DNA of 63,941 bases, the filler included, from Deltaproteobacteria bacterium (GTDB taxonomy: Bacteria > JAUYMQ01), in assembly GCA_030698575.1 (NCBI GenBank). It is 12 parts of 12 records of this genome, joined end to end, with 100 filler letters (N's around TTAATTAATTAA, not from the genome) between each part and the next. Parts side by side here need not be neighbours in the genome. Positions count along the whole stretch, not along the records: positions 14,911 to 19,044 come from JAUYMQ010000028.1; positions 19,145 to 22,325 come from JAUYMQ010000030.1; positions 22,426 to 25,933 come from JAUYMQ010000033.1; 9 more parts are not named here. One strand, written 5' to 3'. Under the pieces are notes generated by a model. That model saw only the letters and a program-made list of their open reading frames with translations, was not told the origin of the DNA and did no database searches. This document shows, one piece after another, positions 16,772 through 52,621 of the stretch (position 1 is the first letter of the stretch; each line of letters begins with the position of its first letter). The translations under genes were made by a program, and so were the position numbers.

Positions 16772-16819
16772 TGACTCTTAATCAGTAGGTTCCTGGTTCG
16801 ATTCCAGGTGGGCTCACCA
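16772..16819 (+). repeat. att site: 48-bp exact duplicate of the 3' part of tRNA-Lys(CTT)
   Basis: TGACTCTTAATCAGTAGGTTCCTGGTTCGATTCCAGGTGGGCTCACCA is identical to the reverse complement of 23309-23356; the 5' part of the tRNA is absent. Confidence 0.95.
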
Positions 16820-16868
16820 ATTAAATCGGGTACTTAGCCGAAGAGCGGAAAACCGGGAGAAGGGCCGT

Positions 16869-16887
16869 ATAGACGGCGAATAGACGG
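16869..16887 (+). repeat. Second type of candidate arm sites (8-bp direct repeat, 11-bp period)
   Basis: ATAGACGG at 16869 and 16880, just downstream of att. Confidence 0.5.
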
Positions 16888-16951
16888 TCAGCGTGGGGCA
16901 TCCCCCAGCCGCCCCGCCCCGGGCCCCGGCAAGGCCCCAAAGGGAGAGACG

Positions 16952-17111
16952 GTGGGAAGGAAGCTCGGCTTCTCGTTCACTTTGGAAGCGCGCCCTGGGC
17001 GTCTCGGGCGCCAAGGGCAAGGTCTCGCGCAAGGCGGGCGTGCCCCTCAGCAAGCAGGGGCGCGAGCGCAAGGTGGGCCGGGCCCTTCTGAGGCTGCTCG
17101 GGTTCAAGTGA
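16952..17111 (+). pseudogene. Small basic FSWKRALG-type protein, frameshifted copy
   Basis: GTG start MGRKLGFSFT, then an extra T at ~16981 shifts into WKRALGVSGAKGKVSRKAGVPLSKQGRERKVGRALLRLLGFK; intact paralog at 23007-23162. Confidence 0.75.
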
Positions 17112-17248
17112 CGGCTCGAGCTGGCGGGCGCGAGGCGAACCCCCCACGGGCTTAGCGCAGTTCACCAGTGATGCGACCGAGAGGGAGCAGTGCTCCCGAG
17201 AGAAGCCAAATCGTGCGCTGAGAGTCTAGCGCCGTGCGAGGTGTCCTC

Positions 17249-18031
17249 ATGGCACTGGATATTTGAAGATCACTCCGGAAGTTCCTGCCGCACCTTCTGC
17301 AAGCCCGCCAAGACAACCTGAACGAGGCGGATACCGTCCAGCGGTTGATCAAGGTCTTCGAGGATGTTCTTGGCTACGACGCACTCTCGGAGATCAGCCG
17401 TGAGACGCAGGTCAAGGGCAAATACATAGACATCGCCCTCAAGATAGCCGGCGTTGTGAAGGTGATCGTGGAAGCCAAAGCGGCCGCCGTCACCCTGCGC
17501 GAACGTCACATTGAGCAAGCCGAGCAGTACGCTTCGAAAAACAATTTCGAGTGGGTCTTGCTCACAAACGGCGTCGTCTGGAATCTCTATCACCTCACGT
17601 TCGATGAGGGGATCGAGTCCGTTCTCGCTTTCTCTGCCGATCTGTCGAGTGACGAGAACTTCGACGGGTCCGCCAAGTGTCTGGGGATCCTTCACCGCCA
17701 GTCGATCAAGAAGGGCGAGCTGGATCAGTTCTGGGAGCAGAAGACCGCCCTCAGTCCGGCGTCGATCGGCCGCGCGCTGTTTCAGGAGGACGTCATCCGC
17801 GTGATCCGTCGGGAGATCCGGAGGGGGGAGGGCATTCTGGCGGACCCGGAGGATCTCGCGGAGGCGCTGCGGCGGATGCTCTCCTCGGAGGCTCGCGAGG
17901 CGATGGGACCGCTGAAGGTGAAAAAGAGGCGATCTAAGCGCCCGAGAACAACGCCAATCACACCCGCCGCAGAGGGATCGAACGAGGCATCGCCGCCAGG
18001 CCCGCCGGAGCCTGATGAAGAGGGCCAGTAA
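17249..18031 (+). pseudogene. Stand-alone type I restriction HsdR-N-like PD-(D/E)XK nuclease with a nonsense codon at position 6
   Basis: ATG GCA CTG GAT ATT TGA, where the paralog has CGA; the rest is open: NEADT, YIDIAL...VEAK, EQAEQY (QxxxY), LTNGVVW. Confidence 0.8.
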
Positions 18032-18485
18032 GGCTACCGCCAGCGCCGTTGCCCTCAGTTGCCGTTCCCCGGTCCTGCCACCCCCCGCGGCGCCGCCGGG
18101 ATCTTGTCCCGGTGCCGCCGGCGATCGGGGATGGCGACGTGGTGGTCGTTTCCGCGCGCGCGGGTGCGCTCGTGGGACGAGGCCGTGGTGATACTGCAAT
18201 CGGGAAAGACGCTCGTTTGGCGTGTCTTCTTCGCCAGCCGAATGCTCGAGCTCCGGGCCTATGCCAAGAACGCGGAAGAGTCGGGGCGTCGTCCTTCGGC
18301 TGTTCCACCTTGACACAGCCGAAACGATCCCGGCCGGGAAGAGTGCTGTACCCACGCGGTATAGCACTCAGCCGCCGCCGATGATCGTGTCGCGGAAGGA
18401 CGTGCGGCTCATGGCGCGGGTGATTTGGATTCAAAGGGCCAGATGATGAAACGAAGCGCGAGCTGAGATTGGAGAGGGGGGATCT

Positions 18486-18845
18486 ATGAAGTCGCTTCTG
18501 TGGCTATCCGTGGCGGCCTCACTAACAGTCATGCTCTTCGCCGCCGATCTAAGTGCAAGAGATGATCGACCGCAGCTCGTGGGCGTCGGCTGGGACAGGG
18601 GATGCAACGTGCTCGCGGCAATGATCGATTGCGCGAGTGGTGAGTACCTTATGCTCATTCGAGACAGTTGTGACGAGATACAAGATGGGACGAGTAGGGT
18701 GATCGCAACCGGCCTCTGCGAACGCAAGAGAGCCTCTGTAGACATCGACCCGCTCCAAGCACCGGCCGGTACGCGCCTGTTCGTCAAATCTTCCCAGAGA
18801 GGCTGTTCCGACATCGGCTTCACCGTACCAGAATGCAGGCGCTAG
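18486..18845 (+). CDS. Small secreted cysteine-containing hypothetical protein
   Basis: Signal peptide MKSLLWLSVAASLTVMLFAADLSA, 6 Cys, GGAGAGG RBS, lower GC than the core genes. Confidence 0.6.
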   Translation: MKSLLWLSVAASLTVMLFAADLSARDDRPQLVGVGWDRGCNVLAAMIDCASGEYLMLIRDSCDEIQDGTSRVIATGLCERKRASVDIDPLQAPAGTRLFVKSSQRGCSDIGFTVPECRR

Positions 18846-18887
18846 GATTGGCGCCCTTGTCCCCCGCTTCGCCCAAGGAACTAAAGC

Positions 18888-19025
18888 ATGCCCCGCACCA
18901 AGGCCGGCATCTTCAAGCGCCCCGCCTCTCCCAACTGGTACGTGAAGGTCAAGGACGCCCGCGGCCGCTGGATCATGCGGTCCACCCGGATGCTCACGGG
19001 CACCTGCTCGCGCACGAGACAATGA
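18888..19025 (+). pseudogene. Probable integrase N-terminal remnant
   Basis: Manual translation MPRTKAGIFKRPASPNWYVKVKDARGRWIMRSTR resembles integrase arm-binding N-termini, then stops after 45 aa. Confidence 0.5.
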
Positions 19026-19144
19026 ATGGGGGTCTTCCTTGTGTNNNNNNNNNNNNNNNNNNNNNNNNNNNNNNNNNNNNNNNNNNNNTTAATTAATTAA
19101 NNNNNNNNNNNNNNNNNNNNNNNNNNNNNNNNNNNNNNNNNNNN

Positions 19145-19327
19145 GGCAAGGAACGCGAGCAGGGCGATTGTCCCACCGCCGACGAAAGCGAAGTCTTCAG
19201 CCCATGCGGCGACGACGAGTCCGGCGAGCAGCAACGGAGGGCCTGGGAGCCCGGGCAACACGAAGCCGGCCAGGCCCAGGAGGACCAGAACGAGTGAAAG
19301 GAGCCAGAGCAGGAGCTCGGTTTCCAT
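19145..19327 (-). CDS. DUF456-family membrane protein, 3' truncated
   Basis: LVLLGLAGFVLPGLPGPPLLLAG...AWAEDF. Confidence 0.75.
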
Positions 19328-19333
19328 CGACCC

Positions 19334-22216
19334 CTAAGAGCTGCGAATCCGCGCCCGGCGCCGCCCGCGGGCGAAGGCGAGGAGGGCAAGGAACATAGCC
19401 GCGCCCCAGCCCGATAGCGCAGGGACGGCGCCGCCCGCAGGTGTGCTGCCCGCATCGGCGGGATTGGAGCCGGCGTCGATCTCGTCCCGGTCCTGGAATC
19501 CGTCGAGATCGCGGTCGAGGCCCATGCGGCCACCCGATCCGACCGGGACCGCCATGAAGGTCAACTCAGCGCCCGCGCCGGCCATGGTTCTTAGCGCTGC
19601 AGCGTCGATCGGCGGCTCGGAGGCCCTGTCGGGCTGGCAGCTGGCCTGCGTCGCGCTCACCGAAAGGCAGCGGAAGCTCCGCGGTATCCCGCCGAACACT
19701 CCCCCGACGATGAGATCAATCCCCCCCTGACTGAGCACGAGAAACATCGAGTCGAGTTCGGCAATCAGCGCCGCGTCCCCGTTGTTCGCACCATCGAACG
19801 TTATTGCGTGCCCCACGGTCGCCGCCGGGCCCGTCGGGAACTGGTTCATGAAATCGACGATGTTGATCTTGGCCGTCACGTCGGTCCCGAAGGTGAACAC
19901 CGGCGCGCTCACGAAGTTGAACAGCGTATCCACCGCGCCGTCGTGCGTCAGGCCGAATCCGTTGCGGGTGAAGGCCGGAACGGGAATGGCCGCCAGCGGC
20001 AGCGCCGCGTAACCCGTCTTCTCGTACATGTTGCGAAGGTGCGGCACCTTGAGCGCCTCGTTCCCGCCGTCCGCCAGCGCATTGATGAAGCGGCTGTTGG
20101 TCCCCGTCGGGAGCGTGTGGCATTGGTTGCAGGTGCGAACGTTCGCATCGCGCAGGATCGACATGTAGTCGGTCATCCCCGCGGCGGCGCTTGCCGTGAA
20201 CGTGTCGTCGAGGTTGCGGTTCGGGTTCGGCGGGAACCGAACCGTCATGATGAAGTCGGTGTACGCGTTCATCTCGGTCGTGGTGAGCTGGGCGTCGTTC
20301 TTGAGGAGTCCGGGGAACGCCTTGTTGAAGGCCTGGAAGTTCGCCCGGTCGCCGCGCCAGTGCAGCGGCTCGGTGCCGCCGAGGTCGCGCAGCGTCTGCG
20401 TCGTCTGCGGGCCCTTGAGCGGATGGAACGGGCCGCAGCCGCCCACGTTCGGATTGGCCCCGCAGTCACCCGGGAAGCCCGAGGCCGACTGGGGGGGGCG
20501 CTGATCGTAAGGGAAGGTGTCGGTCGGGTCGCCGAGATCCCAGGCCAGCAGATCGAAGTCGCCGAAGGCGTGGCAGGTGGCGCAGGCGACGTCCCCGCGC
20601 CCGGATGTGAGCTGGGCGTCGTAGAGGAACTTCCGCCCCGTCTTGATGGCCGCCGGCTCCGGATTGAAGAGAGCGACGCGCGGAAGCACTTCGGTGTTGA
20701 TGCTCGTGTTCACGACCGAGATCGTGTTCTCGTGCCGGTTCAGCACGTAAAGACGATTCGCCGATTCCTTCAGCGCAACGCCCGTCGGCCCCTCGCCCAC
20801 GTCGATGCGCGCGAGCATCGAGCCCGGCACCGCGCTCGTGTCCACGACGGCGACCTTCCGCGAGAGGATCGCGGCCGCGTAGAGTCGCGTGCCCGCCGCG
20901 TTGAAAGCCATGCCGTTGGGCTGGCCGATGCTCTGCGCCTGGGCGATCGTGGCGATGTCTGCGCTGTAGTCGATGTGCGGATTCAGATCCACGAAGCCCG
21001 AGATCGTGGTCCCCGTGGCCACGGTGATCCGGGTGTCGACAAGATGGCCGTTGAGCGAGACCGTGCAGGGCTCGGCCCCTTCACAAACACCGTCCTCGTC
21101 CCCCTGCGCGTCGCCCAGTATTTCCAGGCTCGCCTCGAAACGCACGTGATTGCGGGCGTCGGTGTTCGCGACGTACAGGCGCTGTGTGAGGGGATGCACC
21201 GCCACCCCGAAGTTGAGCGTCCCGGTGCTCTGAACGTAGCCCGAGACCAGGGGCGTCGCGGCGTCGGCGTCGATTACCGCCACATCGCGATCGCGCATCT
21301 GCATCACCGTCCCGCCGCCGGCCCCTCCCGCCACCGAGTCGAGCAGGTTGTTCCAGGAGTTGTTGTTGTCGTCGCACCACGCGCTGGCCGGGGATCCCGT
21401 GCAGTCCCGCCACTTCGCAATGATGGACGTGCCGGGCCGGTCGTTGAAGGGAGAGCTGGCCGCGTTGTAGCCCGGCGGAGGCGGCACGATGGCGCCGAGG
21501 TAGGGGCTTGCGGGATCCGCGGCCCGGCTGCCCGCGTTGTCGCCGGCGATTATCGTTGTCTGGTTCCCCGAGTAGAAAACCGCGGCGTAAACCTCGGTCC
21601 CGGTGCTGTTCCGCGCGAGCGCGCGCGGGTCCTCGCCATCAATCTGCAGGAAGAAGAGCGGGGTCGTGGGAGCGACCGCGTCGAAGACGTCCACCCGGTT
21701 GCGCTGCGAGAGGCACACGAAAGCCCGGGGATCACCCGTTCCGCCGGCGAAGACGACGTCCGTCGGCTCGTCGCCCCGGCAATCCTTCGCCGTCCCCGCA
21801 CCGGTGCAGCAGTCGAAGGGGGCGCGAACCCCCGTGCAGGAAGCGGCCAGCGGGGAGTTTCGGAGACTGAGTGTCCGCTTCACCCGTTCCTGCCCGGACG
21901 TCAGATCCACGATGCTGATCGAATCGGAGAGGTGGTTCACCACCCAGGCTTCGCCGTTGGTCCGGGCGCGCACGCTCACCGGCTCGAGGCCAACCGGAAC
22001 TTCCGCGAGCAGGGCCAGCTCGCCGGCAACGCCGACGGAGAAGATCAACAGCCGGGCGTCGGGGGTGTTGAGCGCAAGCAGCCTGGAGCCGTCGGGCGTA
22101 ATCTCGAGCGGGTGGATCTGATGGCTCTCGAAATTCGTGTAGGAGGTTTGGGCGTGGGCCGCCGCCGGCCAGACGAGAACCAGCGCCGCGAACAGCGCGA
22201 TCAACAAAATCCGCAT
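19334..22216 (-). CDS. Secreted YVTN beta-propeller + di-heme cytochrome c protein with IPTL-CTERM-like sorting tail
   Basis: Signal peptide; propeller repeats (VPVGLEPVSV, WVVNHLSDSISIVD, IDVGEGPTG); CATCH and CNQCH; TQTLR, PLHWRGDR, KVPHLRN; DRDLDGFQD; AVPALSGWG + TM + RRR. Confidence 0.85.
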   Translation of the reverse strand: MRILLIALFAALVLVWPAAAHAQTSYTNFESHQIHPLEITPDGSRLLALNTPDARLLIFSVGVAGELALLAEVPVGLEPVSVRARTNGEAWVVNHLSDSISIVDLTSGQERVKRTLSLRNSPLAASCTGVRAPFDCCTGAGTAKDCRGDEPTDVVFAGGTGDPRAFVCLSQRNRVDVFDAVAPTTPLFFLQIDGEDPRALARNSTGTEVYAAVFYSGNQTTIIAGDNAGSRAADPASPYLGAIVPPPPGYNAASSPFNDRPGTSIIAKWRDCTGSPASAWCDDNNNSWNNLLDSVAGGAGGGTVMQMRDRDVAVIDADAATPLVSGYVQSTGTLNFGVAVHPLTQRLYVANTDARNHVRFEASLEILGDAQGDEDGVCEGAEPCTVSLNGHLVDTRITVATGTTISGFVDLNPHIDYSADIATIAQAQSIGQPNGMAFNAAGTRLYAAAILSRKVAVVDTSAVPGSMLARIDVGEGPTGVALKESANRLYVLNRHENTISVVNTSINTEVLPRVALFNPEPAAIKTGRKFLYDAQLTSGRGDVACATCHAFGDFDLLAWDLGDPTDTFPYDQRPPQSASGFPGDCGANPNVGGCGPFHPLKGPQTTQTLRDLGGTEPLHWRGDRANFQAFNKAFPGLLKNDAQLTTTEMNAYTDFIMTVRFPPNPNRNLDDTFTASAAAGMTDYMSILRDANVRTCNQCHTLPTGTNSRFINALADGGNEALKVPHLRNMYEKTGYAALPLAAIPVPAFTRNGFGLTHDGAVDTLFNFVSAPVFTFGTDVTAKINIVDFMNQFPTGPAATVGHAITFDGANNGDAALIAELDSMFLVLSQGGIDLIVGGVFGGIPRSFRCLSVSATQASCQPDRASEPPIDAAALRTMAGAGAELTFMAVPVGSGGRMGLDRDLDGFQDRDEIDAGSNPADAGSTPAGGAVPALSGWGAAMFLALLAFARGRRRARIRSS

Positions 22217-22425
22217 GAGGGCTCCTCTTTCTCCCGCCGACCATGCACCGAAAGAGGAGGGTTCCCGTTCCGCTGCCATCGCCCGTTCACCGGGAGGTAC
22301 CCCGAGGGGCCGGCCCGGGTGCGAGNNNNNNNNNNNNNNNNNNNNNNNNNNNNNNNNNNNNNNNNNNNNTTAATTAATTAANNNNNNNNNNNNNNNNNNN
22401 NNNNNNNNNNNNNNNNNNNNNNNNN

Positions 22426-22897
22426 ACTCGCCCTTCTTGATGGACTGACGGTTAAGGAGCGCGAGACTCTTAGCGGCCGCGTCGAAGTCCCCTTCGCTTG
22501 ACAGATCGGCGGAGAAAGCGAGTACGGATTCTATGCCTTCGTCGAAGGTGAGGTGGTAGAGGTTCCAGACAACTCCGTTCGTAAGCAACACCCACTCGAA
22601 GTTGTTCTTCGATGCGTACTGTTCGGCCTGCTCGATATGGCGCTCACGCAGCGTGACCCCAGCCGCCTTTGCTTCAACGATCAGCTTCACGACGCCATCG
22701 ATCTTAAGCGCGATGTCGATGTATTTCCCCTTCAACTGCGCTTCGCGGCTGATCTCCGTGAGCGCGTCATACCCCAGCACCTCCTCGAGGACCTTGATCA
22801 ACCGCTGGACTGTATCCGCCTCATTTAGGTTGTCCTCCTGGGCTTGCAAGAGGTGCGGTAGGAACTTTCTAAGCGACCTTCGAATATTGAGTCCCAT
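22426..22897 (-). CDS. Stand-alone HsdR-N-like PD-(D/E)XK nuclease, intact as far as assembled (3' truncated by contig end)
   Basis: MGLNIRRSLRKFL...NEADT...YIDIAL...VEAK...EQAEQY...LTNG; AAGGAGG RBS. Confidence 0.85.
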
Positions 22898-23006
22898 GCC
22901 TACGCCTCCTTCGCATCGCGGATCATCCAGTACATGGCGGCACCGTGGGTGCCGAGTCACGCCAGCCGGGTCCCGGGGGCTCCATCCCGTCAGCCAGCTC
23001 GGAGCG

Positions 23007-23162
23007 TCACTTCAGCCCGAGCAGCTTCAGGAGGGACCGGCCCACCTTCCGCTCGCGCCCCTGCTTGCTGAGGGGGACGCCCGTCTTGCGCGAGACCTTG
23101 CCCTTGGCGCCCGAGACCCCCAGGGCGCGCTTCCAAGAGAACGAGAACCCGAGCTTGCCCAT
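23007..23162 (-). CDS. Small basic 51-aa protein (FSWKRALG type; not in the ORF track)
   Basis: Manual translation MGKLGFSFSWKRALGVSGAKGKVSRKTGVPLSKQGRERKVGRSLLKLLGLK; purine-rich RBS; conserved paralog at 16952. Confidence 0.75.
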   Translation of the reverse strand: MGKLGFSFSWKRALGVSGAKGKVSRKTGVPLSKQGRERKVGRSLLKLLGLK

Positions 23163-23308: not shown

Positions 23309-23384
<76 letters not shown>

Positions 23385-23406
23385 TGAACTTCTCCGTGGT
23401 GCGCTG

Positions 23407-23483
23407 TGGTGCGCCCGGGGTGACTCGAACACCCGACCTGCGGATTCGAAGTCCGACGCTCTATCCAACTGAGCTACGGGCGC
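23407..23483 (-). tRNA. tRNA-Arg(TCG)
   Basis: GCGCCCGTAGCTCAGTTGGATAGAGC...CTTCGAA...TTCGAGTC...CCA. Confidence 0.95.
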
Positions 23484-23521
23484 TAATCGTCTTGATCGGT
23501 TCCCCGCGGGAACCTTGAAAA

Positions 23522-23599
23522 TGGGGTGAGCGAGGGGACTTGAACCCCCGGCCTCCAGGGCCACAACCTGGCGCTCTAACCACCTGAGCTACGCCCACC
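23522..23599 (-). tRNA. tRNA-His(GTG) with encoded G-1
   Basis: GGTGGGCGTAGCTCAGGTGGTTAGAGC...TTGTGGC...TTCAAGTC...CCCA. Confidence 0.95.
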
Positions 23600-23671
23600 A
23601 TACTGTCCCCATCGGGAGGTGGCGCCCTGCCCGCTCTCGGGCTTCCTCGCCCTGCCTCACGATGATCTATC

Positions 23672-23749
23672 TGGTGCGCCCGGCGTGATTCGAACACGCG
23701 ACCCGCGGATTAGAAGTCCGCTGCTCTATCCAGGCTGAGCTACGGGCGC
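23672..23749 (-). tRNA. tRNA-Arg(TCT)
   Basis: GCGCCCGTAGCTCAGCCTGGATAGAGC...CTTCTAA...TTCGAATC...CCA. Confidence 0.95.
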
Positions 23750-42180: not shown

Positions 42181-42308
42181 CCAGATTTCTCCTCGCAAAG
42201 GGCCGCCCGCGCACAATTCTATCATCGCGCCCTTCCGCCGGCCACGCATGACCCATGCCAATGAAGCGCATTCAGCGCAGGCCATTGGCGGCGTGCGGGC
42301 TGCCGGGG

Positions 42309-42370
42309 GATTGCTTCGTCGCTTCGCTCCTCGCAATGACATGCGCGGGGGCTGCTCGCAATGACATGCG
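42309..42370. repeat. REP-like extragenic element (GTCATTGCGAGGAGCGAAGCGACGAAGCAATC family)
   Basis: Reverse copy plus a partial second copy; same unit at 44857 and 52535. Confidence 0.8.
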
Positions 42371-44368: not shown

Positions 44369-44851
44369 ATGGCCGCACAGAAAACAATCGATACGAAGTC
44401 GAAACCGCCCCGGAAATCCTCCTCGAAATCCCGCGCCGCGAAGGGCAGGAAGGCAAGTCAACGCCCCGCGTCGGCGCTGCTGGAGGTAGCCGCGACCTGG
44501 CCGTTCGTTTCACGCAAGTACATGTTCGGCTGCAATGTGCTGCTCGGCAACGGCCGGCTCTTTTTCCTCGAGATGGACGATTCCATCGTGCTGCGCGTCG
44601 GGAAGGATCATCTCGAGAAAGCGCTGCGCGTCCGCGGCACCAAGTTGTGGAACCCCTGGACACCGGGCGCGCCCGGCGACTGGGTGAGCTTCCCACCCTC
44701 TCGCCGGCAGATCCCGAGGCCGCTTGCCGCGTGGGCGCGCACCGCCTACGAGGCCTCCCTTCAGCGAAAGCCTCCGCCGAAGAAGCGCCTTCGCGGCTCG
44801 CGCCCCGCGGGAGCCCGCAGTAACCGCCGCGCCGATCGCAACGGGAAATAG
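44369..44851 (+). CDS. TfoX/Sxy N-terminal-like domain protein
   Basis: RKYMFGC..LL.NGRLF...IVLRV...DWV pattern. Confidence 0.6.
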   Translation: MAAQKTIDTKSKPPRKSSSKSRAAKGRKASQRPASALLEVAATWPFVSRKYMFGCNVLLGNGRLFFLEMDDSIVLRVGKDHLEKALRVRGTKLWNPWTPGAPGDWVSFPPSRRQIPRPLAAWARTAYEASLQRKPPPKKRLRGSRPAGARSNRRADRNGK

Positions 44852-44856
44852 CCTCC

Positions 44857-44994
44857 CGCATGTCATTGCGAGGAGCGAAGCGACGAAGCAATCCCCCTCG
44901 CTAATGCCCCTTCAACCTGCTGCGAAGGGCAAAGGTGCCGAACGCGCAGGAGATTGCTTCGTCGAGCCTGTGGCCCTCCTCGCAATGACATGCG
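44857..44994. repeat. Inverted pair of REP-like elements (REPIN-like)
   Basis: CGCATGTCATTGCGAGGAG...GAAGCAATC ... GATTGCTTCGTCG...CTCCTCGCAATGACATGCG. Confidence 0.8.
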
Positions 44995-52439: not shown

Positions 52440-52534
52440 AGGCCGATTCGAACGGCGGCCGGGCCCGGAGCCCGGCGGCTCGAGAGGCCCCCGCGCCACG
52501 CGCGGGGGCCTTCGCGTCTGGGGGGCGGGCCCGC

Positions 52535-52621
52535 CGCATGTCATTGCGAGGAGCGAAGCGACGAAGCAATCTCCCTGTTCGTGGCGCTGCCTGGGGGATT
52601 GCTTCGGCACCCTCTGCGAGG
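52535..52621. repeat. REP-like element at contig end
   Basis: CGCATGTCATTGCGAGGAGCGAAGCGACGAAGCAATC followed by inverted GATTGCTTCG. Confidence 0.75.

Follow-up and report, generated by a model that had tools for sequence, protein, structure and literature searches.

Adjacent genes for an HsdR-N-type orphan nuclease and a small basic protein at a tRNA-Lys integration hotspot are probably separate mobile cargo rather than a two-gene defense system

The DNA analyzed here (the window) is a stretch of 63,941 nucleotides from a Deltaproteobacteria bacterium (GenBank assembly GCA_030698575.1). The assembly is highly fragmented, the 64 kb comprising 12 contigs that are chained by N44-TTAATTAATTAA-N44 linkers, and two of these contigs carry the same arrangement, a 51-aa basic open reading frame (ORF; the small gene) followed by a nuclease with an HSDR_N_2 domain. 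A preliminary description of this DNA had put the pair forward as a candidate new two-gene defense or toxin-antitoxin system. We propose instead that the two genes belong to separate, independently mobile cargo families that meet at a tRNA-Lys hotspot, that they do not constitute a two-component system, and that their adjacency is specific to this lineage, and we consider this the probable explanation.

The pair accounts for the only long self-similarity in the window (16772-17719 against 23356-22427), and its two diverged copies are situated on contig A (14911-19044) and contig C (22426-25933), which are separated in the chain by contig B (19145-22325). Both copies had been described as lying in the same order and orientation 130-150 bp after a tRNA-Lys. 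The repeat, the order and the distances were confirmed, as the gap from the tRNA-Lys 3′ end to the small ORF is 132 nt in copy A (measured to the GTG at 16952) and 146 nt in copy C, but copy A follows a 48-nt tRNA fragment and not a tRNA gene. The small ORF and the nuclease are in turn 137 nt apart in copy A and 109 nt apart in copy C. These two spacers do not align with each other and the copy C nuclease is preceded by its own AGGAGG, 7 nt before the ATG, so that there is none of the short or overlapping, conserved junction expected of a tight operon; a promoter and terminator scan of copy C found nothing.

The evidence against a dedicated system comes largely from how rarely the two families are found together. 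The loci compared were the best 80 of 205 small-gene loci and the best 80 of 219 nuclease loci. No nuclease homologue was found within ~7 kb at any of the 80 small-gene loci (best tblastn E 1.1), 75 of which have at least 1 kb of downstream sequence, and the small gene was absent from all 81 nuclease loci searched (80 metagenomic and 1 viral), among which 65 include 300 nt or more of upstream sequence. As a positive control, 47 of 47 small-protein queries recover both copies in the window, the match in copy A being 16983-17108. When hidden Markov models (HMMs) were run over six-frame translations, both families were present in 1/110 nuclease loci and 1/103 small-gene loci, and these are one and the same place. 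The nuclease was found at 0/39 viral small-gene loci and, when sought anywhere in the genome, in 0/10 small-gene genomes, and each of two 401-genome phylum samples yielded a single genome with both families, located on separate contigs in one (G092) and adjacent in the other (G465). Hence the families nearly never co-occur, and the co-occurrence beyond the source lineage on which the preliminary description had itself made the two-gene system depend is essentially lacking.

The closest relative of the nuclease (93% aa identity, locus L081) is informative in the same respect. The DNA that it shares with the window extends from 19 nt before the ATG to just beyond the stop codon, and at its locus another gene lies upstream, with neither the small ORF nor a tRNA present. 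A downstream Cys-rich ORF is common to L081 and contig A, the L081 homologue (~115 aa, 2275-2619) matching that of contig A by blastp over 2251-2616 with 32% identity over 111 aa (E 1.8e-10).

Several observations weigh against the two genes being independent. The loci compared are the best-scoring part of those available, and order and orientation are kept in the two copies even though the nucleases are near synonymous saturation. In G465 (locus L194, contig C10, 899-2253, minus strand) a distant homologue of the nuclease (HSDR_N_2, 28 bits) shares a 4-nt overlap with the start of a 183-aa gene, whose product combines a zinc-ribbon-like N-terminus (judged by eye) with the small domain and a membrane helix. 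The frame that follows has a match to GmrSD_C at E 0.0036, which is below the cut-off, and looks like a frameshifted GmrSD_C-type nuclease. Compared with the window, the gene order in G465 is reversed and the small domain is the cytoplasmic N-terminus of a larger membrane protein. This is one independent adjacency, which in a genome of 4.6 Mb is improbable as a matter of chance. There is probably a third instance, as a nuclease with 92% identity (P0004) and a small protein with 88% identity (P0124) are both from Logan and have the same longest contig size of 7494 nt, and P0049 and P0168, which share a longest contig size of 7916 nt, may be another; both are unverified candidates. A functional link restricted to the source lineage therefore stays alive, at low probability.

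Such a link would make the pair a genuine functional unit within the source lineage, a split defense or toxin-antitoxin-like module in which the small protein places or restrains the nuclease at the membrane or on nucleic acid. It is favored by the conserved arrangement of the two diverged copies, by the unverified P0004/P0124 candidate, by the overlapping genes of G465 and by the fact that both families inhabit defense-like or mobile neighborhoods. We nevertheless judge it improbable, given the near absence of joint loci in genomes and viruses alike, the single adjacency among the 401-genome samples, the lack of the small gene beside the closest nuclease relative, the unalignable spacers with the nuclease's own AGGAGG, the reversed order in G465, where the domain does no more than form the N-terminal part of a larger membrane protein, and the unequal divergence of the two genes, to which we now turn.

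Between copies A and C the nucleases differ at 22 of 157 residues, exactly as had been counted in the preliminary description, and at 88 of 471 nt, and their synonymous divergence (pS) is 0.61 with a nonsynonymous divergence (pN) of 0.061. The copies are therefore old and not the product of a recent duplication, as had also been stated. For the small ORF the corresponding values, over 42 comparable codons, are only pS 0.14 and pN 0.044, and 152 nt around it are 90% identical between poorly aligned flanks, while the DNA from tRNA to small ORF and from small ORF to nuclease barely aligns between the copies. A pS of 0.61 as opposed to 0.14 means that the two genes have different histories. The locus is a mosaic, in which the small-gene copies share a much later ancestor than the nuclease copies or were exchanged, and such mosaic divergence is unexpected for a unit inherited whole. 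Neither the spacers, which cannot be aligned, nor the very different synonymous divergence of the two genes supports a dedicated two-gene unit.

The preliminary description had further suggested that the two copies were independent acquisitions. Contigs A and C may represent tandem elements in one chromosome, or two populations binned together, with one and the same site occupied in one and empty in the other, since the geometry fits both. With the second arrangement the copies would be a single chromosomal locus from two related populations, contig C being the empty site, with the tRNA-Lys and its native flank, and contig A the far junction of the occupied site, where element, integrase and displaced 48-nt tRNA end would be followed by that same flank. 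The layout is exactly that predicted for an empty site plus an occupied distal junction, the assembly is highly fragmented, and the genes are diverged with unalignable intergenic DNA, as orthologues would be. On the other hand, with a nuclease pS of 0.61 the organisms would have to be distant, and distant organisms are unlikely to share a bin, no other similar contig pair is present in the window, and the order integrase, attachment (att) site, small gene is equally expected of an attP region or of a tandem-element junction. We regard the two-population explanation as a serious possibility that falls somewhat short of an even chance. It is compatible with separate cargo families and competes only with independent acquisition.

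The low synonymous divergence of the small ORF also raises the question of whether it is a gene at all, rather than a conserved non-coding element (an RNA or an integrase arm site) that is open by chance in a GC-rich genome. The 152-nt block amid poorly aligned flanks, the low synonymous divergence between the copies, and the conservation of copy A in spite of a frameshift would all suit such an element. However, many phyla as well as phages have protein homologues with an invariant GFSFSW..R.LG motif, some larger proteins contain the domain as an in-frame fusion, and there is no Rfam match. Furthermore, at ten loci in Bacteroidota where two vWA genes flank the small gene, its pS has reached saturation, as has that of its neighbors, with a pN of ~0.2, so that it evolves as an ordinary protein-coding gene. 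The non-coding explanation can hardly be correct, and the saturated pS of these orthologous small genes likewise rules out a family-wide nucleotide constraint as the cause of the low synonymous divergence.

The features of the region are collected in Table 1. The region is a tRNA-Lys(CTT) integration hotspot, and the integrase and the 48-nt repeat mark one junction of an integrative element. The complete tRNA-Lys(CTT) of contig C closes a tRNA cluster, Arg(TCT)-His-Arg(TCG)-Lys, and the 3′ portion of this tRNA recurs on contig A as a direct repeat in which ARAGORN calls no tRNA. The integrase gene int1 starts 174 nt to the left of the att repeat and reads away from it. An integrase beside a direct repeat of a tRNA 3′ end is thus present on contig A, which does not reach the other end of the element, and in this respect the tRNA-integrated element of the preliminary description is borne out. 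An Rfam scan found only tRNAs in the region; rows for 'Plastid-ycf2' at 23311-23749 (plus strand) were below the gathering score and antisense to three tRNAs, and were dismissed as chance matches to tRNA-like structure.

Table 1. Features on contigs A and C of the window, in window coordinates.
Feature	Position	Strand	Evidence or remark
P4-type tyrosine integrase int1, 411 aa	15363-16598	-	Pfam Phage_integrase 2e-18, Arm-DNA-bind_3 2.4e-15, Phage_int_M 2.9e-12
48-nt 3′ fragment of tRNA-Lys(CTT), anticodon stem to CCA (att direct repeat)	16772-16819	+	Identical to 23356-23309
Small basic gene, copy A, disrupted	16893-17111	+	Conserved frame 16983-17111
Nuclease, copy A, 260 codons, HSDR_N_2 PD-(D/E)xK	17249-18031	+	In-frame TGA at codon 6 (17264-17266)
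Cys-rich ORF, 119 aa, signal-peptide-like N-terminus (judged by eye)	18486-18845	+	Pfam: no family
45-aa ORF, end of contig A	18888-19025	+	
Nuclease, copy C, first 157 codons intact	22426-22897	-	Gene cut by contig end
Small basic gene, copy C, intact, 51 aa (P0001)	23007-23162	-	
Complete tRNA-Lys(CTT)	23309-23384	-	ARAGORN; Rfam tRNA 70.7 bits

Copy A is a decaying allele in which both genes are broken. Its small ORF contains one surplus base near 16973, a +1 frameshift that puts the GTG at 16952, originally assigned as its start, in a different frame from the conserved part and abolishes the invariant GFSFS motif. The nuclease of copy A, which had been regarded as the full-length version of about 260 codons, has an in-frame stop and is a probable pseudogene. 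The next canonical start, a TTG at 17345, would delete P14 and N25-T29, N-terminal residues that do not vary among 30 homologues. Reading of the TGA as a sense codon was considered and rejected, since the small ORFs of copies A and C both end in TGA, which is therefore a stop codon in this organism.

The nuclease itself is a member of a large, known and uncharacterized family of stand-alone PD-(D/E)xK orphan nucleases of ~260 aa. The Pfam model HSDR_N_2 (PF13588) gives 33.3 bits with copy A and 37.6 bits with copy C (gathering cut-off 25), and HSDR_N (PF04313) also scores above its own cut-off for the nuclease copies. The D...EAK plus QxxxY signature noticed in the preliminary description is indeed invariant in an alignment of 30 homologues (D61, E75, K77, Q90 and Y94). 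At least 927 homologues at E ≤0.001 were found among 2190 scored candidates from a protein database. The best 120 are 228-301 aa in length and 56-100% identical, and many of them carry the name 'predicted type IV restriction endonuclease' given by the Joint Genome Institute (JGI). No match to ResIII, SWI2_SNF2 or DEAD was found with Pfam in the 260 codons, which means that there is no superfamily 2 (SF2) motor, and an HsdR-N-type nuclease of this size lacking the motor is accordingly what the preliminary description had correctly recognized. Neither HsdM nor HsdS is present on contigs A or C, each of which is only 3.5-4.1 kb long, and there is no methyltransferase among 113 ORFs flanking nuclease homologues. 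The missing methyltransferase fits a type IV enzyme, the 'type IV' label being a prediction of the JGI annotators. The flanking ORFs include integrases (L083, L088), transposases (L093, L109), XRE-type regulators (L084, L090, L095, L114, L124), HNH proteins, one T5orf172 protein and four Ion_trans channels. The distribution of the nuclease is patchy, with 10/401 genomes in the phylum of G001 (locus L001, Nitrospira japonica) and 16/401 in that of G407 (locus L063, Acidobacteria).

The nuclease also matches phrog_17239, of unknown function, with an E value of 5.5e-45, nothing in NCBIfam scores above the cut-offs, and searching the PDB by sequence yielded no meaningful match to the nuclease or to the small protein. 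PADLOC (PADLOC-DB 2.0), which had been suggested as a check on the proposed module, found no system; the small protein has no match and the nuclease matches only weakly the N-terminus of type IIG enzymes (REase_MTase_IIG, 2.2e-6), an outcome that lends no support to the pair being a module. The AlphaFold2 model of the nuclease, with a predicted local distance difference test (pLDDT) score of 84, has an alpha/beta core (residues 1-135), a helical domain (138-219) and a disordered tail, and the helices and strands of the core follow the order of the PD-(D/E)xK fold, pLDDT exceeding 90 for most of residues 1-160. The best Foldseek matches, all with E >0.001, are the nuclease domains of BpuSI, EcoR124I HsdR, BsaXI and DrdV, together with Hjc resolvases. 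A 2012 survey of the PD-(D/E)XK proteins (PMC3424549) joins HSDR_N, HSDR_N_2 and EcoR124I in its group 48, lists COG2810 alongside and notes a predicted type IV class.

The small protein, for its part, is a real and conserved though unnamed domain. There are 46 homologues of 38-74 aa and 58-88% identity with the invariant motif G-F-S-F-S-W..R-A-L-G...G.P....G, and the 205 small-gene loci, which were confirmed on contigs of a one-genome-per-species set, extend over Nitrospira, Omnitrophota, Bacteroidota, Planctomycetota, Elusimicrobia, lineages of the candidate phyla radiation (CPR), Chloroflexota, Acidobacteria, Verrucomicrobiota and others. Among 1.84 billion cluster representatives (50% identity clusters), a profile search returned at least 1120 at E ≤0.001, including 579 at E ≤1e-10. 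The best 150 representatives comprise 20 proteins of ≤65 aa, 37 in which the domain is followed by a hydrophobic segment resembling a membrane helix, 51 with other C-terminal extensions, and 41 in which the domain is at the C-terminal end of a slightly longer call. A membrane helix is lacking in the 51-aa protein of the window. The small protein is matched by none of the Pfam, NCBIfam, PADLOC or PHROG models, in the ESM Atlas its only matches are unnamed clusters of 52-aa proteins, and its motif is absent from the literature searched. AlphaFold2 predicts three helices (pLDDT 77), for which a fold search gave no match with E <7.

We considered kinship with DUF4236 (PF14020), a similarly short, basic, N-terminal domain followed by variable C-terminal parts. 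This was ruled out, as 48 small-protein members gave no Pfam match at E values up to 10, the PF14020 model misses the small-gene loci in four genomes that carry them, and the hhalign probability is 0.2%. As a separate observation, two genomes have two copies of the small gene in one locus (L020, 1240-1353 and 7001-7156; L027, 6992-7126 and 12315-12449).

The genomic contexts of the small gene are varied, as seen from a Pfam scan of 76 upstream and 64 downstream ORFs. No tRNA recurs consistently close to the gene among the 80 best genome loci. The sole conserved operon context found is the TerD / vWA (TerY) / TerY_C / AIM24 cluster, which accounts for 16/80 loci, and in Bacteroidota the small gene lies between two TerY-like vWA genes (~210 aa), often 6-20 nt from them or overlapping (L011, L020, L021, L042, L043, L046, L049, L058, L060 and L066). 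A further six of the 80 loci adjoin restriction-modification (R-M) genes, namely three HsdR, MmeI, Eco57I with Mrr, and an N6_N4 methylase, and other loci adjoin AbiEii, a KAP NTPase, SNase, Fic, a resolvase, ion channels or housekeeping genes. Ion-channel genes (Ion_trans, TMEM175, IRK_C) adjoin the nuclease at some loci (L134, L136, L147, L151) and the small gene at others (L022, L076, L024, L002), these being unrelated loci.

On viral contigs the 39 small-domain loci encode the domain N-terminal to one or two membrane helices. The 66 neighboring ORFs from 18 of these loci were scanned against PHROGs, and a CI/XRE-type regulator lies no more than two genes away in 12 of the 18 and an integrase in nine, although many of the phages are near-identical and form ~8 groups by eye. 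The usual order is repressor, small-domain protein, integrase; at L224, L227, L229, L232, L237, L240, L247, L250, L251 and L256 the small-domain gene is between or beside the other two. According to a published account (PMC7693887), the interval between repressor and integrase of temperate phages includes superinfection-exclusion functions that are commonly membrane-associated. The phage position is in keeping with the window, in which an integrase adjoins the small gene at the att core; no repressor gene is found near the window's own small gene.

When the two proteins are compared with known systems, the nuclease shares with the stand-alone HSDR_N_2 (PF13588)/COG2810-type proteins the domain, the size of ~260 aa, the D-EAK-QxxxY residues and the lack of both motor and methyltransferase, is about 60-93% identical to hundreds of proteins in the database and, with nothing material to set it apart, is a member of that group. 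With type I HsdR (EcoR124I) and the type IIG enzymes (BpuSI, MmeI, DrdV) it has in common a homologous N-terminal PD-(D/E)xK domain, but unlike these it possesses no SF2 motor, no methyltransferase and no domain for target recognition, and its helical C-terminal domain is peculiar to it. The phage homologues of the small domain resemble the lysogeny-module and superinfection-exclusion genes treated in the account cited above in being near repressor and integrase and in having membrane helices, whereas the 51-aa form of the window has no such helix, and kinship in sequence with a named exclusion protein was neither tested nor found. SNIPE, as set out in a report (PMC13190303), is a membrane-bound nuclease that cuts phage DNA during injection, a single protein with a membrane helix, DUF4041 and GIY-YIG. 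Here the likeness would be one of logic only, and only on the most speculative view given below, a membrane-placed element plus a nuclease, and the window, with two genes of other families that are rarely together, is not a member.

With the two genes as separate cargo, the following scheme can be put forward. Both cargo-type genes sit on the tRNA-distal side of the att core. The nuclease would most probably cut DNA alone as an orphan enzyme, in the style of type IV restriction and possibly in a modification-dependent manner. The small protein is a free-standing version of the unnamed domain, which in other proteins forms the N-terminus ahead of a membrane helix, and would most probably be an element-borne accessory as in lysogeny modules, a candidate exclusion factor that acts at the membrane or on nucleic acid. 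More speculatively, and with the chances against it, the ~45-residue 'GFSFSWKRALG...GIP.TK.G.ERK.G' module might be an undescribed, widespread domain that marks membrane-proximal exclusion or defense proteins, and here and in G465 it may recruit or gate the neighboring orphan nuclease at the membrane, the SNIPE logic being split over two genes.

Some remaining features of the window should be mentioned. The 45-aa ORF at the end of contig A presumably has an N-terminus like the start of a tyrosine integrase; it has no Pfam match and no match among the loci compared. A housekeeping-type protein on contig C has as its nearest named relatives proteins from Acidobacteria, Kryptonia and Binatia metagenome-assembled genomes (MAGs) with ~55% identity, and the source organism is therefore without a close sequenced relative. 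On other contigs of the window a repeat of 43-49 nt occurs three times, in both orientations and with 96-98% identity (42305-42353, 44850-44898 and 52530-52576), and may be another att-type or repetitive extragenic palindromic (REP)-like repeat.

The analysis thus removes a two-gene defense system as a false lead, and illustrates how weak a repeated neighborhood is as evidence for a functional module when the copies come from a single fragmented assembly. What is of some value in the region are two separate families. One is a large family of orphan HsdR-N-type nucleases, for which activity is a prediction only. The other is an unnamed, strongly conserved, small basic domain that recurs both in the lysogeny modules of prophages and in stress and defense clusters.

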